Assembly (NCBI GenBank): GCA_029258835.1
Contig: JAPDJY010000088.1
Location: 1 to 33,072 of the forward strand
Direction: 5' to 3'
Length of the DNA: 33,072 bases
DNA from: Thermoproteota archaeon
GTDB lineage: Archaea > Asgardarchaeota > Jordiarchaeia > Jordiarchaeales > Freyrarchaeaceae
The notes under the pieces are model-generated. The model worked only from the letters and a program-made list of their open reading frames with translations. It searched no databases and was not told the origin of the DNA. This document shows positions 11,706 to 29,676 of the stretch, one piece after another. Within the stretch, counting starts at the first letter, position 1; every line of letters starts with the position of its first letter. The translations under genes were made by a program, and so were the position numbers.

Positions 11706-12746
11706 ATGGAGAAGTCTTCATTAAACACGAAGAGGAGGATGCTCGTTAAAAGTGAGGATGAGACGTCAAGGGAGTACGGGAAGTACCCCGATGAGAGGAG
11801 CGTTGAGGAACTTTTAGAGGGATCCTTTGTTAACATCGACAAACCGGCTGGGCCTACAAGCCACGAGGTCTCTTCTTGGGTGAGACGCATCCTTAACTGT
11901 AAGAAGACCGGGCATGCAGGCACACTAGAGCCCTTACTCACGTAAGGGCGGTGAAACCCTAAGGTTACCGGGGTTTTACCCGTAGCTATAGGATACGCCA
12001 CAAAGCTTATTCAAGCATTGCACCTTGCAAGTAAGGAATACGTGTGTGTAATGAGGATGCACGGGGACGTTGGCTTTGAACAGGTTAAAATGGTTTGCAA
12101 CGAGTTTACTGGCCCGGTCTATCAGAGACCTCCAGTTCGATCATCAGTCAAGAGACGGCTTAGGATTAGGAGAATACATAGCATAGAAGCTCTCGAAATG
12201 GACGGCCGAAACGTTTTGCTGAAGATACGCTGCGAGTCAGGAACTTACATTAGGAAGCTGTGCCATGACATAGGGGAAGTTTTGGGGTGCGGAGCACATA
12301 TGCGTGAGCTTAGAAGAATCGGGAGTGGACCATTCACGGAGGAAAATATTGTGACGTTGCATGATTTAAAGGATGCATATGTCTTCTGGATGGAAGAGGG
12401 GGATTTAACTATTAAGAAATTTTTATTGCCAGCCGAAATAGCCGTTCAACACCTACCTAAAATATTCGTTCGTGACTCGGCTGTTGACGCCATATGTCAT
12501 GGCGCTGACCTAGCAGTTCCTGGCGTGGTTAAATTGGAGGAGGGCATCGAGCCGGGGGGGATGGTGGCCATTCTTACCCTTAAAGGAGAGCTCGTCGCAT
12601 TGGGATCTGCTTTAATGTCGACGGAGCAAGTTATTAGAGAAAAGAAGGGGTTGGCCGTTAAGACCAAGAGAGTAATCATGGAGAAGGGGACGTACCCGCC
12701 TCTCTGGAAGAAAAAAGAGGATGCAAAGTCGGATTCTTCGCCTTAA
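11706..12746 (+). CDS. cbf5: H/ACA pseudouridine synthase Cbf5, two exons (11706-11928, 11956-12746); 337 aa after splicing
   Basis: [11 protein letters not shown] and GHAGTL^DPKVTGVLP restored by removing 27 nt; ESGTYIRKL and PUA domain downstream. Confidence 0.95.
11929..11955 (+). other. 27-nt BHB-type intron in the cbf5 catalytic Asp codon
   Basis: Central helix CACT/GGTG, bulges AG^A and AA^A, inner stem GCCCTTAC/GTAAGGGC. Splicing gives CTA GAC CCT (L-D-P). The intron contains an in-frame TAA. Confidence 0.93.
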
Positions 12747-24504: not shown

Positions 24505-24906
24505 TTATAAAACTTCCCCGTCAAGTGCCAGGTGGTCCTCCTGCCTGAGGAAGACCACGGCGACGCCGGCCTCCCTAAGCTTCCTCCGAAGCTCCCTGTC
24601 ATTGGTGGCTACGACGCACCTTTCAACCTTTTTGGCATAGTTCAAAATTGATTCGTCCACCCCCCCACAGCTGAAGGAGCAAAACTTCACGTTTGCACGA
24701 TCAACAAGTTCCAATGCTGACCTAGCCATCCTTCCAATCTTTCCTCCTCTTCTAGCAAGCTCCTTCAGCTCCCTTAACACGCAGTCTAAAACCACCACTT
24801 CGTACTTTGCAACGATAACCCTATCAAGCTCCGAAAAAAGGTCTAACCCGAGGGAGAAGGGGGCAAGCAGAAAGTTAGTGTCGACCAGAACCTTAACGAC
24901 GTTCAC
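24505..24906 (-). CDS. PIN-domain protein (Fcf1/Utp24-like)
   Basis: VDTNFL, VDESI and VATNDRELR motifs; lies between aIF2gamma and rpoE'. Confidence 0.9.
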
Positions 24907-26198
24907 TTCACAATTCCCCACCCAATGAGTCTCCATCTCCCCGAAACCATCCGGCTCACGGCAACCCTTTGCCCCTCCTCGGCGCAGACCGGCCGGCGCA
25001 GGTTGATCTCGACGACCCCGCCCCTAACCGAGGACACCACGCCTACAGTAACCGATGAGCCAACGTTCAGCATTAACGGCTCATTAACCTTTACATCTTC
25101 CACCTTAGAAAGCTCCACGCTGCCGACAACACGCTCCATTAAATGCAGCTCTAAACTTAAACCATCCCATACTGGGGGAAGGGTACCCGGCTTCCCGACC
25201 ACGCTCCCTATAAGTCCGTCAGCCTTTGTCAAGGAGGGGTCTAGCTTCGTTCCAACGCCAATCAACCCTCCGGGGACAGCTTCCTCGAGCTCCACGCCTC
25301 CACCAGCATGCAAGCTCACAACGTCAGTATAGATGGGCTCGTACCCTCCGCCAAGGCTAACACCAGGGCGAATCTCGATCTCGTCACCGACCCTAACCCT
25401 CCCCTGAACGATAGCTCCGCCAATAACGCCCCCAACCAAGTCCTCAGGCCTCGTACCAGGCTTATTAACGTCGAAAGACCTAGCCACGTACATCCTTAAG
25501 GGCTTACTAAGGTCTCTAGTGGGGGTGGGGATCACCTCCTCGATGCTTTGAACCAAAACGTCAAGGTTCACACCGAAGACGGCTGACACGGGGATGACCG
25601 GGGCGCCCTCGGCGAATGTCCCGCTAATAAACTCCCTGATCTGCCTGTAATGTTCGATTGCCGCCTCCCTAGAGACAAGCTCGATCTTGTTCTGCACGAC
25701 GACGATGTTCCTAACCCCGGTGATTTCCAGCGCGGCGAAGTGCTCCCTCGTCTGAGGCTGAGGGCAAGGCTCGTTCGCCGCGATAACCAAGACGGCGCCA
25801 TCCATCAGGGCGGCGCCACTAATCATGGTAGCCATGAGACGCTCGTGCCCTGGGCTGTCCACGAAGCTAACCTTCCTCAGGAAGACGGCGTCCTCGCCGC
25901 AATGCGGGCACTTGTACCCTCCAGCCATCGCCAACGTGAAGTAGCACTGAGGGGGAGGGCAGGAGGGACACTTCAAAACAACAGCGTCGGCGTAACCCAA
26001 CTTGATGGTGATGCCGCGCCGCTTCTCCTCACTATGACGGTCAGCCCAGACCCCTGTAAGCGCGTGCACAAGGGTGGTTTTCGGCGCCCCCCATCAGCAT
26101 GGATGGGCATTGCCGTGGTCGACGTGTCCTGCGGTGCCTATGTTTACGACGCTTTGCGACTTTGCAGCATCCTCAAATGCGCCAGCATTCCCCGTCAA
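24903..26198 (-). CDS. eif2g: Translation initiation factor 2 gamma subunit, two exons (26198-26110, 26079-24903); 421 aa after splicing
   Basis: [12 protein letters not shown]^[30 protein letters not shown] and WRLIGWG motifs; GGAGGT before TTG. Confidence 0.96.
26080..26109 (-). other. 30-nt BHB-type intron in the aIF2gamma P-loop Lys codon
   Basis: Central helix CGGC/GCCG, bulges AA^T and AA^A, inner stem GCCC..CCAT/ATGG..GGGC. Splicing gives GGC AAA ACC (G-K-T). In-frame TGA inside the intron. Confidence 0.92.
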
Positions 26199-26399
26199 AA
26201 ATAAACCTCCATCAGGTTTTAATAAGTGTGAAGTTACTTTTCCTTTCTCCAGCGGTCTTTTTAAAAGTTTCTTGCATCCAGCTAGCACCTTCCACCGTCA
26301 CCTGCTTCCACGGTTAAAAACCTGCCCTTAACAGTAGAGAAGCCTTGCTCAGGGCGGAGCGGCCAGGAGTCCACGGTGCGGCGCCCTTCAGCCCTCCCC

Positions 26400-27167
26400 T
26401 TAGGGGGGTCGGGCAGCATCGTTTAGCAGGGAGCCTATCTCCTCCTGTATCCTCCTCATCACATCCACACTTATTTGCCCCGGCGCAACAGGATCGTCTA
26501 GTGAGGCATACGTGAAGGGAGAGCCGAAAAGGGGGCAAAGGATCCTCGAAACAGCCCCCAGCCTGCCCATACAGAAGGACACGGTTCTCCCCCGACGCTT
26601 GGTTGAAGCCAGCTTTAAAAGGAGGAGGTTATCCGTGATCCTCCTCGCCAAGGTTACGATTTTAGCTACGTCGCATCCGAGGCTGAAGAGGATGTCAACC
26701 TTCCTAGCCAGGAAACTCCACGTCGGCGTAGCTTCAAAGTCGTGGTAGGACAGGATAAGGGTAACCCCAACCTCTTTACACAGTGAAACCAGCCTGCCGA
26801 GGAGGGCGGGGTCAGTTGACGCCTCCACATCCACGAAGTCCGGTCCAGAAAGAACACACTTCTCTATCAGCTTCACCCGTTCACCCTCGCTAAACGGGAA
26901 AACACCCCCCTCACCTCTACGCCGAACAGTCACGATGACCGGCACCCCAATGTCAGACAGCAGCCTCCCAACCCGAACCCTCCTCCTCTTAAGATAGTCT
27001 AAACGCAACTCCACCAGGTCCGCTCCAGCATCACACGCCCTACGCGCCTTCTCCAGCATACCCTCCTCACTGTCAGCCCTCACGGAGACGCAAACCCTAA
27101 ACAAGCCAGCACCAGCCAGAGAAACCCGCCCCTTACTCCTCAGCAACCTTCCGGGAGGCAACCTCAA
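26400..27167 (-). CDS. aroD: Type I 3-dehydroquinate dehydratase
   Basis: ELRLDYL, TVRRRGEGG, SYHDF, AKIV, SRI and APGQ motifs. The true start is probably downstream of the ORF-track start. Confidence 0.9.
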   Translation of the reverse strand: MRLPPGRLLRSKGRVSLAGAGLFRVCVSVRADSEEGMLEKARRACDAGADLVELRLDYLKRRRVRVGRLLSDIGVPVIVTVRRRGEGGVFPFSEGERVKLIEKCVLSGPDFVDVEASTDPALLGRLVSLCKEVGVTLILSYHDFEATPTWSFLARKVDILFSLGCDVAKIVTLARRITDNLLLLKLASTKRRGRTVSFCMGRLGAVSRILCPLFGSPFTYASLDDPVAPGQISVDVMRRIQEEIGSLLNDAARPP

Positions 27168-27342
27168 GAACAGCTAAAGCTTCACCCTCACCCTTACGGC
27201 CGGGAAGAACCCCCTCCTTGTAGAGTAAATCCCTGACAGCCACACGGACAGCCTCACTCCTACTCCTGTAAACACCAAGCTCGACAAGCATCCTCAAACC
27301 CTTAACGTACTCCTCAGGAACCCTAAACGACGTCGACTTCAT
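27133..27342 (-). CDS. Ribbon-helix-helix (CopG/MetJ-like) DNA-binding protein
   Basis: TSFRVP...LVELGVYRSRSEAVRVAVRDLL. Confidence 0.88.
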   Translation of the reverse strand: MKSTSFRVPEEYVKGLRMLVELGVYRSRSEAVRVAVRDLLYKEGVLPGRKGEGEALAVLEVASRKVAEE

Positions 27343-27591
27343 AAGCTAAATACGCTACAATAGACAATATAAACATGACCTTTCACAGAACACGTAAAAC
27401 ACGAACCCCACCAGCACGGCACTTACACACGTTCACGGCAGACACAACCATAGGGGAAAGCCTCCCAGAACAGGCAAAACACATCCAACACCAGCGGCAG
27501 CCAACACAAAAAGAAAAACACCAGAACAAACCTCAAAAAAGGAACAGGAGAGAACCCCGACAGCCCAGCTTTCACCGGGAAACACGAGCAC

Positions 27592-28933
27592 CTACGACCT
27601 CGCCTTAACCTCCCTAACCACTCCGACGGCAACCGTGTAATCGCTGTCACGCACCGCGAAGCGGCCAAGCTGAGGAATCTCCTTATAGGGCTCAATCACC
27701 ATCGGCCTCGTCGGCTCAAACTCCACCAGCGCCGCGTCACCACGCTTAATATAGTCCGGGTTCTCCTCTATCACCTGCCCCGTCCGCCTATCCAGCTTAG
27801 CCAGAAGCTTCGAAAACCTGCACGCCACCTGAGCCGTGTGAGCGTGAATCACCGGAGTATAGCCCGCCGCGATCGCCGTCGGATGCTGAATAACAATTAT
27901 CTGACCCACAAATCTCTCAGCCACAGTAGGCGGATTAGCCGGGTGGCCAGCCACATCGCCACGCCTAATATCCTTCTTAGAAACACCACGCACGTTAAAG
28001 CCAATGTTATCCCCCGGAACAGCCTCGTCAATCCGCTCATGATGCATCTCTATAGACTTAACCTCACCCTTAACGTTGGGCGGCTGGAAAACAACGGTAT
28101 CACCAGTCTTCAAGACACCAGTCTCAACCCTGCCAACAGGAACAGTCCCCACCCCAGTAATACTGTAAACATCCTGAACCGGAATCCTAAGCGGCTTATC
28201 AACCGGCTTAGGCGGCACCTTCAACATGTCCAAAGCCTCAATCAAAGTCGGCCCATCATACCAAGGCATATTACCGCTCTTCTCAAGCAAGTTATCACCG
28301 GTCCACGCAGAAACAGGAACAAACGGCACCTCGTCAACCTTGTAGCCAACCTGCTTAAGCAACGTCTCCACTTCCTTCCTGATCTCCTCATACCTCTCCT
28401 TACTCCAGTTCACACTCGCATCATCCATCTTATTAACAGCGACAATCATCTGACCAACACCCAGCGTAAACGCAAGATACGCATGCTCCCTCGTCTGACC
28501 ACCAGGACCAATCCCCGCCTCAAACTCACCCTTCCTAGCAGACACCACCAGCACCGCAGCATCAGCCTGCGACGTCCCAGTAATCATATTCTTAATAAAG
28601 TCCTTATGACCTGGAGCATCAATGATAGTGAAGTAATACTTATCTGTCTCAAACTTCCAGAATGAGATGTCGATGGTTAGACCGCGTTCTCTCTCCTCTT
28701 TGAGTTTATCCATAACCCAAGCGAACTTGAAGCTACCCTTTCCAAGCTTTTCTGCTTCCTCTTCATATTGCTTGATTGTCCGCTCATCAATCGCCTTAGT
28801 AAGGTAAAGCAAATGACCCATAAGAGTCGACTTCGGCATTCCCCGGGAAGACAGGTTACACCGCCCGGGGAATATTGCCGTGATCCACGTGCCCTATAAC
28901 CACCAAGTTCAAATGCGGCTTAGAAGCACTCAT
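27592..28933 (-). CDS. tuf: Elongation factor 1-alpha, two exons (28933-28875, 28831-27592); 432 aa after splicing
   Basis: [19 protein letters not shown]^[22 protein letters not shown] and LGRFAVRD motifs. Confidence 0.97.
28832..28874 (-). other. 43-nt BHB-type intron in the EF-1alpha P-loop Lys codon
   Basis: Central helix CGGC/GCCG, bulges AA^T and AA^G, perfect 10-bp inner stem ATTCCCCGGG/CCCGGGGAAT. Splicing gives GGC AAG TCG (G-K-S). In-frame TAA inside the intron. Confidence 0.93.
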
Positions 28934-29148
28934 GCTAACATCCTCCTAACTCATTCATGCACGCTGATTAATCAAAACTCCACTTTTTTATTTTTTTCGG
29001 ATATCAAACAAAAGCAGTTCACATCATTAAGCAGCGCCAGAAGAGGTGGATCTGTAACAGCCACCACTGCGGCAATCCGGACAGGAAAAATTAATAAGTG
29101 AAACTGCAGGTTAGAATCCACAGGTCAGAGCTCGGCGAGGGGGCGGCA

Positions 29149-29676
29149 TTGCCTAGACGTCCATCAAGATGTTATACGAAGGTGGATGGGCCACCGTACA
29201 CCCGTTCTGAGTATATTCACGGAAGCCCACCATCCAAGATAAGAATTTATGAGATGGGAAACCCCAAGCAGAACTATACGTTAAGAGCGGACTTGATCAT
29301 TCAAGAGCCATGCCAGATCACAGATGGAGCACTTGAAGCCCTAAGAATAGCGGTTAATAGGCACCTTACAGTTAGACTCGGACGAGATAACTACTACCTT
29401 AAAATCAGACCAAAGCCACACCACATCATACGAGAGAGGAGAATGCTAGCGTTTGCAGGAGCAGACCGGCTGCAAGATGGGATGAGGCTTTCATTTGGGA
29501 AGCCTACTTTGCGTGCTGCCAGGGTTAGGGCTGGTCAGGTTATTTGTAGTGTTTGGGCCGTGGATTCTTCTAGGGCTGTGGAGGCTATTAAGAGGGCGTT
29601 TTACGTTGGGGGGAGGAAGCTTCCTCGCCCGTCACGCGTAGAGTTTGTTAGGGGGGAGGGTTTACCTTTAGAGTAG
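29149..29676 (+). CDS. rpl10e: 50S ribosomal protein L10e (uL16)
   Basis: RPSRCY, ALEALR and AGADRLQDGMRLSFGKP motifs. Confidence 0.96.
   Translation: MPRRPSRCYTKVDGPPYTRSEYIHGSPPSKIRIYEMGNPKQNYTLRADLIIQEPCQITDGALEALRIAVNRHLTVRLGRDNYYLKIRPKPHHIIRERRMLAFAGADRLQDGMRLSFGKPTLRAARVRAGQVICSVWAVDSSRAVEAIKRAFYVGGRKLPRPSRVEFVRGEGLPLE

Follow-up and report, generated by a model that had tools for sequence, protein, structure and literature searches.

One of the questions raised by contig JAPDJY010000088.1, a 33,072-nucleotide stretch of an Asgard archaeal genome that was analysed at its full length and is referred to below as the window, concerns why two ancient paralogous GTPases of translation, EF-1alpha and aIF2-gamma, are interrupted there at the identical nucleotide. 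Both genes lie on the minus strand of the window and in both a short insert divides the lysine codon of the P-loop motif GHVDHGK. What are these inserts, how might they be removed, and how did they come to occupy the same position in two different genes? The answer developed here, which is held to be probable, is that both represent genuine bulge-helix-bulge (BHB) pre-mRNA introns that were gained separately, and that the shared nucleotide reflects a preferred site of landing or retention and not recognisable copying. The window (contig C27) belongs to a genome (labelled G000) of 2.72 Mb in 91 contigs with a GC content of 48.8%, a completeness of 94.7% and a contamination of 6%, and the closest named relative of its EF-1alpha, at 89% identity, is found in a metagenome-assembled genome of Candidatus Jordarchaeales (Asgard). 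The family, of Jordarchaeales-type Asgard archaea, contains only one other genus, the sister genus, with the genomes G001 to G004.

The positions of the exons, introns and structural elements are collected in Table 1. Removal of the insert from EF-1alpha generates a 432-residue protein with the sequence GHVDHGK|STLMG, and its removal from aIF2-gamma generates a protein with GHVDHGK|TTLVH, such that a full-length open reading frame (ORF) and the motif GHVDHGK(S/T) are restored in both genes. Exon 1 of EF-1alpha codes for 19 residues and the AA that forms the first two bases of the Lys codon. The products of the two second exons are recognised by NCBIfam as the EF-1alpha and aIF2-gamma equivalogs, each short of only the first ~20 profile positions, which correspond to exon 1; each gene is essential and present in a single copy, with strong conservation of both exons. 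A first-pass annotation of the DNA had claimed that the inserts split the P-loop Lys codon after its second base (CACGGCAA|T) in the two paralogues, and here its coordinates and description prove exact. The GCCGAA 3' end and the central helix CGGC/GCCG that it ascribed to both introns are likewise found in each, and the differing interiors that it described are indeed unrelated, with lengths of 30 and 43 nucleotides (nt) as stated. There is also a consequence for annotation, in that gene callers give N-terminally truncated forms of EF-1alpha and aIF2-gamma that lack the P-loop. Within the EF-1alpha intron an ATG (GGGGAATGCCGAAG) opens an ORF of 415 codons (27592-28839, minus strand), and this ORF, which would be called as EF-1alpha without GHVDHG, is a likely source of truncated annotations.

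The most direct evidence for the removal of an insert comes from two metatranscriptome runs (X18 and X19) and two DNA runs (X14 and X1), which were compared over positions 24900-29000 of the window. An RNA contig of X18, 251 nt in length, joins 28831 to 28875 and omits exactly the 43-nt EF-1alpha intron, matching exactly over 69 nt upstream and 117 nt downstream of the junction. The intron is retained in the DNA, both in X14, which derives from the same sample as X18, and in X1, the best DNA run, where the whole stretch lies in one contig, and the second RNA run, X19, contains an unspliced EF-1alpha contig of the same allele. Splicing of EF-1alpha is in this way seen directly in RNA, on thin evidence, and it bears out the first-pass claim that the introns are real. 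With aIF2-gamma, conservation and covariation of the insert suggest that it too would be spliced.

The covariation relates to the structure of the introns. Under the BHB rule as it was applied here, a helix of 4 bp separates two 3-nt bulges on opposite strands and each bulge is cut after its second base. In both introns the central helix between the two bulges forms with 4/4 pairs, with the GCCG strand sitting 2 nt before the intron 3' end, and the cut rule selects exactly the junction that restores the frame, which apart from a trivial sliding ambiguity over AA is the only option. The same rule also works for 20 related introns. The central helix of aIF2-gamma is kept while the intron interior varies among genomes, and across the four sequences available it reads CGGC/GCCG in G000, TGGC/GCCA in G001 and G002, which represents a double change, and CGGT/GCCG in G003; the outermost pair is C-G in G000 and G003 and U-A in G001 and G002, and the innermost pair is G-U in G003. 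Inside the aIF2-gamma intron the helix GCCC/GGGC is followed by a further stem (4+5 bp). Minimum free energy (MFE) folds of both regions include the central helix together with the bulge on its 5' side. Between the exons the outer helix is weak in EF-1alpha, with GAU/GUC behind a 2x2 loop, and missing from the MFE fold of aIF2-gamma, and on these modelled folds both introns are classed as relaxed (HBh') motifs, a form that is accepted by (alpha-beta)2-type EndA (PMC5829648). An Rfam scan gave no family at gathering score anywhere in the window, and the inserts measure 30 and 43 nt where group I and group II self-splicing introns run to hundreds of nt; features of such introns were not found.

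Table 1. Exons, introns and bulge-helix-bulge elements of the two split GTPase genes, in positions of the window.
Feature	Position	Strand	Basis or remark
EF-1alpha exon 1	28875..28933	-	ATG at 28933, GGAGG upstream; ends CACGGCAA; matches N-termini of intron-free relatives
EF-1alpha BHB intron, 43 nt	28832..28874	-	begins T, ends GCCGAA; TAA stop on read-through; skipped by RNA contig
EF-1alpha exon 2	27592..28831	-	begins G (third base of Lys AAG), then STLMGHL; stop codon 27592-27594; TIGR00483 profile positions 21-425
EF-1alpha central helix, exon strand CGGC	28877..28880	-	from codons CAC GGC
EF-1alpha central helix, intron strand GCCG	28837-28834	-	fold and BHB rule
EF-1alpha 5' bulge AA|U	28876-28874	-	fold and BHB rule
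EF-1alpha 3' bulge AA|G	28833-28831	-	BHB rule
EF-1alpha intron inner helix, 10 bp	28873-28864 with 28847-28838	-	loop 28863-28848
aIF2-gamma exon 1	26110..26198	-	provisional TTG start at 26198 behind GGAGG (start inferred); ends CACGGCAA
aIF2-gamma BHB intron, 30 nt	26080..26109	-	begins T, ends GCCGAA; in-frame TGA; orthologous intron in G001-G003
aIF2-gamma exon 2	24903..26079	-	begins A (third base of Lys AAA), then TTLVHAL; TIGR03680 profile positions 19-407
aIF2-gamma central helix, exon strand CGGC	26112..26115	-	BHB rule
aIF2-gamma central helix, intron strand GCCG	26085-26082	-	BHB rule
aIF2-gamma 5' bulge AA|U	26111-26109	-	BHB rule
aIF2-gamma 3' bulge AA|A	26081-26079	-	BHB rule

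The chemistry of removal would be that of tRNA splicing. The exon sequence CGGC, which is provided by the His-Gly codons CAC GGC, would pair with GCCG near the intron 3' end to give the 4-bp central helix, with the bulges AA|U and AA|R on either side and a hairpin inside the intron closing the motif. EndA, with two paralogues as in the (alpha-beta)2 type, would cut after the second base of each bulge, and RtcB would then ligate the exons so as to rebuild the Lys codon and the P-loop GHVDHGK(S/T). The genome holds genes for both putative actors, with two EndA-domain genes (PF01974) at C1:12233-12481 and C6:39796-40056 and one RtcB gene (PF01139) at C1:78966-80273, and the Asgard EndA has been reported as an (alpha-beta)2 type with a broad-specificity L1 loop (PMC5829648). 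Translation of unspliced RNA would be expected to give only peptides of 25 residues for EF-1alpha and 34 residues for aIF2-gamma.

How, then, did the two genes come by their introns? The Lys-codon intron of aIF2-gamma is present in G000, G001, G002 and G003 and therefore in both genera of the family, the aIF2-gamma gene of G004 being missing from a 73%-complete assembly, and it is absent from 26 other Asgard genomes that were inspected (6 of the neighbouring family and 20 further). The EF-1alpha intron at this codon was found in the present genome only, with ~450 other EF-1alpha genes inspected: it is absent from G001-G003, from 80 species representatives and from 76 of 77 readable metagenome loci, the intron of the remaining locus lying 8 nt upstream. 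Full-length EF-1alpha was also searched against 301 Asgard genomes, and among the ~150 matches listed only those of G000, G003 (with an intron in the G3 motif) and G004 (at a contig end) did not start at query residue 1-4, a further 143 lying outside the listing. Because these distributions are so narrow, descent of both introns from an ancestor of the paralogues that predates the last universal common ancestor is excluded across the genes compared here, and the first-pass view that the shared site does not reflect common descent holds. The pattern is best accommodated by a single gain of the aIF2-gamma intron in the family ancestor and a later, separate gain of the EF-1alpha intron on the branch to this species; in an alternative history the EF-1alpha intron would already have entered the family ancestor, with loss from the sister genus, and several gains in a burst along the family stem, with losses afterwards, are also conceivable. 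Contigs of the JGI metagenomes contain no EF-1alpha above 79% identity, such that the EF-1alpha gain is not datable more finely.

The two introns are not isolated cases within the family. In all four sister-genus genomes aIF5B carries a 29-nt BHB intron at the same Lys codon; by the best BHB fit the cut falls after AAA, 1 nt downstream, and the DNA is equally compatible with phase 2 once sliding over A is allowed. One conserved target has therefore seen repeated insertion, the same Lys codon being occupied in aIF2-gamma, EF-1alpha and aIF5B. Other introns of the family lie close by or in a second motif. In G001 and G002 the His codon of aIF2-gamma, 16 nt upstream, contains a second intron, EF-2 of G001, G002 and G004 contains a 29-nt intron in DTPGHV(G|AC)F, and EF-1alpha of G003 contains a 35-nt intron following the His codon of DAPGH. 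Full-length tblastn gave no further breaks in EF-1alpha, aIF2-gamma, EF-2 and aIF5B of the family, and the six intron positions in these four GTPases (~6.4 kb of coding sequence) fall without exception (6/6) in the G1 or G3 motifs. The first-pass prediction that other GTPases with a DHGK motif would be targets stands for aIF5B of the sister genus and fails for EF-2 (AHIDHGKTT), aIF5B and a SelB-like gene of the present genome, all of which have uninterrupted P-loops. The invariant codons GAY CAY GGN AAR would supply the GC-rich exon half of the helix followed by AA, and across Asgard archaea the BHB introns of translational GTPases may well accumulate in codons of the G1, G2 and G3 motifs. The identity of the site is, on this body of evidence, supported as non-random, with site preference, in the form of recurrent site-specific gain or retention, as its cause.

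Further inserts were seen in more distant genes. An unplaced archaeal metagenome contig (Ga0315279_10000989, locus L215) with an EF-1alpha of 67% identity has a clean 30-nt BHB intron at GHVD|HGK, where it separates the codons for Asp and His, ~60 nt upstream of 3501 and 8 nt upstream of the site studied here. Thor-like EF-1alpha has inserts at HKDFI|KNM and TDKY|YNY, and aIF5B of G016 has a 30-nt in-frame insert in EAGGI|TQHIG. EF-2 of G005, from the neighbouring family (L245, G005:C414:1300-2450, minus strand), has a 217-nt insert at DTPG|HVDF, for which the BHB rule gives a 4-bp central helix with no adjacent inner helix. The G3-motif introns of sister-genus EF-2 and of G003 EF-1alpha were considered as a second case of an identical site and rejected, as the sites are 4 nt apart. 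Also rejected as a further split GTPase was an EF-2-like match at C7:25137-25229 (minus strand), a 45-residue N-terminal duplicate without continuation; it is 82% identical, has the P-loop AHIDYGK and is probably what remains of a gene, the intact EF-2 lying ~5 kb away. A genome scan for Walker-A GK|(S/T) codons split by a BHB motif gave 4/4 central pairs in the two known cases only and otherwise chance-like results, and genome-wide scans by BHB motif and ORF restoration, meant to count mRNA introns and yield a site consensus, had no discriminating power, as under relaxed rules the pass rate was equal for AA/AA bulges (79/3532) and control dinucleotides (65/3074). In the aIF2-gamma genes of G001 and G002 (L123 and L124) the two BHB introns measure 33/30 nt and 29/31 nt and enclose a 16-nt micro-exon, ACGTKGATCATGGCAA, within the P-loop codons.

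If the site is shared, could the intron simply have been passed from one paralogue to another? Such a history, in which the introns of EF-1alpha and of sister-genus aIF5B descend from that of aIF2-gamma and were later remodelled in their interiors, would require either reverse splicing with reverse transcription or short-patch gene conversion between the near-identical P-loop codons, and it is judged rather unlikely. It would account well for the identical nucleotide and the identical BHB core (CACGGCAA|T ... GCCGAA|) in the two paralogues of this genome, for the 5' flanks that are identical at 17/20 bases and for the occurrence of hits at one codon in three paralogues of one family, and in the sister genus aIF2-gamma and EF-1alpha stand head to head, ~1.3 kb apart. 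Against it, the interiors of the EF-1alpha and aIF2-gamma introns show no similarity (semi-global score 0, z = -2) and differ in length (43 versus 30 nt), no pair of introns from different paralogues is significant in the similarity test, blastn-short of both introns against the genome recovered neither a donor nor a further copy, and in 40 relatives no match with up to 3 mismatches was found to a 34-mer from the EF-1alpha intron. The lack of similarity is weak counter-evidence, since orthologous aIF2-gamma introns are themselves barely alignable between the genera (z = 1.8-2.1), which gives the test low power. No match to an RVT_1 reverse transcriptase was found in the 94.7%-complete genome, both introns are without an ORF and hence without a homing endonuclease, and the 3' flanks agree at only 8/20 bases, which is poor for gene conversion. 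The identical core is itself accounted for because pairing with the exon CGGC dictates GCCG, AA is the bulge met most often and CAC GGC is the codon choice of this genome, being used in all three GTPases including the intron-free EF-2, which also contains CACGGCAA; sister-genus EF-1alpha uses CAT GGR AAR. For the same reason the resemblance of EF-1alpha CAC GGC AA to aIF2-gamma was rejected as a signature of gene conversion, the octamer of the intron-free EF-2 being the same. Asgard tRNA introns, moreover, are generally without copying between genes (10.64898/2026.10.13.758758). Of the sequence-targeted spread that the first-pass annotation proposed, the recurrence at one site is upheld and the copying is not: transfer between paralogues is possible and not supported by positive evidence. 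A separate observation concerns the 29-nt aIF5B intron, which is near-identical in all four sister-genus species (z = 13; L142 in G002, L147 in G001, L143 in G003 and L138 in G004); as the aIF2-gamma intron of the same genomes has almost fully diverged, intron interiors evolve at very different rates.

The opposite possibility is that random BHB-compatible gains in an intron-rich lineage placed two introns on homologous nucleotides by chance. The lineage is extremely intron-rich in its tRNA genes (PMC11291895; 10.64898/2026.10.13.758758), and the outcome depends upon the null model, for the EF-1alpha coding sequence offers 1299 positions, of which 288 follow A-N, 57 follow AA and 12 follow AA with a GC-rich 4-mer, such that the probability of an exact coincidence with the aIF2-gamma site ranges from p ~0.0008 (uniform) to p ~0.08 for AA behind a GC-rich 4-mer, the strictest case. 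The other introns of these genes have AC, AG, AT, TA and CA as their 5' bulges, and the realistic value consequently lies near the lower end, at ~1 in 288 to 1 in 1299. It becomes much smaller once sister-genus aIF5B, with its intron at this codon, is taken into account, and the clustering of all six positions of four full-length genes within two short motifs lowers it further. Chance is thus an unlikely cause of the shared site, and a history of purely random gains is considered quite improbable. More remote still, to the point of being scarcely credible, is the notion that the inserts are not introns at all and arose instead in assembly, mark lesions of pseudogenes or serve programmed frameshifting or bypassing. 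As such a reading would have it, the length of the aIF2-gamma insert is divisible by 3 and the folding energies of both regions are unremarkable, yet the EF-1alpha insert recurs in independent DNA assemblies, RNA without exactly the 43 nt exists and contradicts an artefact in that gene, compensatory changes accompany the retention of the aIF2-gamma insert in four genomes, both inserts contain stops in the reading frame, and the genes are single-copy and essential with conserved exons.

The favoured explanation, of genuine introns gained separately at a preferred site, has to contend with several observations that weigh against it. The evidence for spliced EF-1alpha is a single assembled contig of low depth, for which an intron-less strain in the RNA library is a residual alternative source, and spliced aIF2-gamma RNA was not seen, the sole RNA contig over that site being unspliced at a depth of 2, which allows no verdict. 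At the 3' splice site the textbook arrangement of a 3-nt bulge backed by a solid outer helix is lacking, the MFE fold of EF-1alpha having a 2x2 loop, and the folding energies are no better than those of shuffled sequences (z = -1.8 and 0.0). Given these unremarkable energies, the structural case rests on the restoration of the frame by rule, on the repetition of this in 20 introns and on covariation. The EF-2 of this genome has GACCACGGCAAAACA at its unsplit P-loop, which matches the context of the split sites, and the presence of CACGGCAA there without an intron means that sequence context is insufficient to explain the site preference. Finally, as the family has only two genera, a gain on one branch is indistinguishable from an ancestral gain followed by loss.

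How do these introns compare with those already described? The nearest precedent is the BHB intron in the cbf5 pre-mRNA of Crenarchaeota, which was gained in one lineage and has undergone lineage-specific loss (Watanabe 2002; Yoshinari 2006; Yokobori 2009, PMC2738675). As with cbf5, whose intron is removed by the tRNA-splicing machinery, a short BHB intron lies within a coding region; unlike cbf5, which represents one gene and one site, the present case involves EF-1alpha and aIF2-gamma in the Asgard phylum, with several paralogues interrupted at the same codon and several introns per gene family. In Haloferax volcanii the BHB intron in the 5' untranslated region (UTR) of the HVO_1309 mRNA has been confirmed as an endonuclease substrate in vivo and in vitro (PMC7714728), which likewise makes an mRNA a substrate of the splicing endonuclease, but there the intron lies in an untranslated leader and the enzyme is a euryarchaeal alpha'2 endonuclease, whereas here the introns lie within a codon. 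The non-canonical tRNA introns of Jordiarchaeia and Atabeyarchaeia (PMC11291895; 10.64898/2026.10.13.758758) share with those described here the same organisms, the BHB rule and recurrent gains at the same position, the difference being that the host is now an mRNA, in which the demands of protein coding fix the exon half of the motif. In a 2026 preprint Asgard tRNA introns are described as repeated gains at BHB-compatible positions, without intron families between genes and with the route of arrival left open (10.64898/2026.10.13.758758), and the pattern favoured here for the GTPases is the same. Related intron sequences do recur, by transposition, in Thermoproteales tRNA genes according to a paper that cites Fujishima 2010; compared with the introns as described there, the copies here are not related in sequence, by a test of low power given that orthologous introns also diverge fast. 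A 2025 structural paper on EndA cites only cbf5 among mRNA introns. In the literature searched, the published archaeal mRNA BHB introns are cbf5, as the sole gene with one in its coding region, and a single 5' UTR case from Haloferax.

Outside of BHB splicing a similar pattern is familiar from inteins and homing group I introns, which sit in the most conserved motifs of essential genes, P-loops included, and recur at homologous sites. The resemblance is one of pattern only. Homing endonucleases are encoded by these elements or needed by them, and copies of them are related in sequence, whereas the introns here, at 30-43 nt, have no coding content and no sequence relationship. In eukaryotic paralogues parallel intron gain takes place at proto-splice sites, with identical positions explained by site preference, and in the unconventional splicing of XBP1/HAC1 the metazoan XBP1 mRNA undergoes cleavage by protein only and ligation by RtcB. 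The former involves spliceosomal introns and the latter cleavage by IRE1, such that the recognition rules differ from those of the BHB motif.

The significance of the two introns lies in their location. In an Asgard archaeon, two translation genes that rank among the most essential and highly expressed would need splicing of the tRNA type, one of them with RNA evidence, and the same codon appears to have been struck independently in up to three ancient paralogues, which provides a testable handle on how BHB introns arrive. It is possible, if doubtful, that a targeted insertion process in Asgard archaea places BHB mini-introns by recognising the conserved G-motif codons of translational GTPases, conceivably through an RNA-level reversal or trans-reaction of EndA and RtcB or through very short-patch recombination at invariant sequences. 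Were this to be so, BHB mini-introns would represent a protein-free analogue of homing elements, and the closest prokaryotic relatives of eukaryotes would depend on their capacity for tRNA splicing to produce the core translation GTPases.

The local gene order differs between the genera. The direction of the change is not inferable, because aIF2-gamma and EF-1alpha are unlinked in the next family; the change itself is an inversion of the block 26400-28933 relative to all three sister-genus genomes compared (L123, L124 and L125). The block consists of a dehydroquinase-like gene (26400-27167), a small ribbon-helix-helix-like ORF (27133-27342) and EF-1alpha, and it lies between collinear flanks, with aIF2-gamma on the left and an ORF at 29098-29676 on the right. 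Elsewhere in the window, at 11929-11955 on the plus strand, a putatively cbf5-like gene contains a 27-nt BHB insert (CACT AG|A ... GGTG AA|A) with an 8-bp inner helix, the removal of which joins two open frames.

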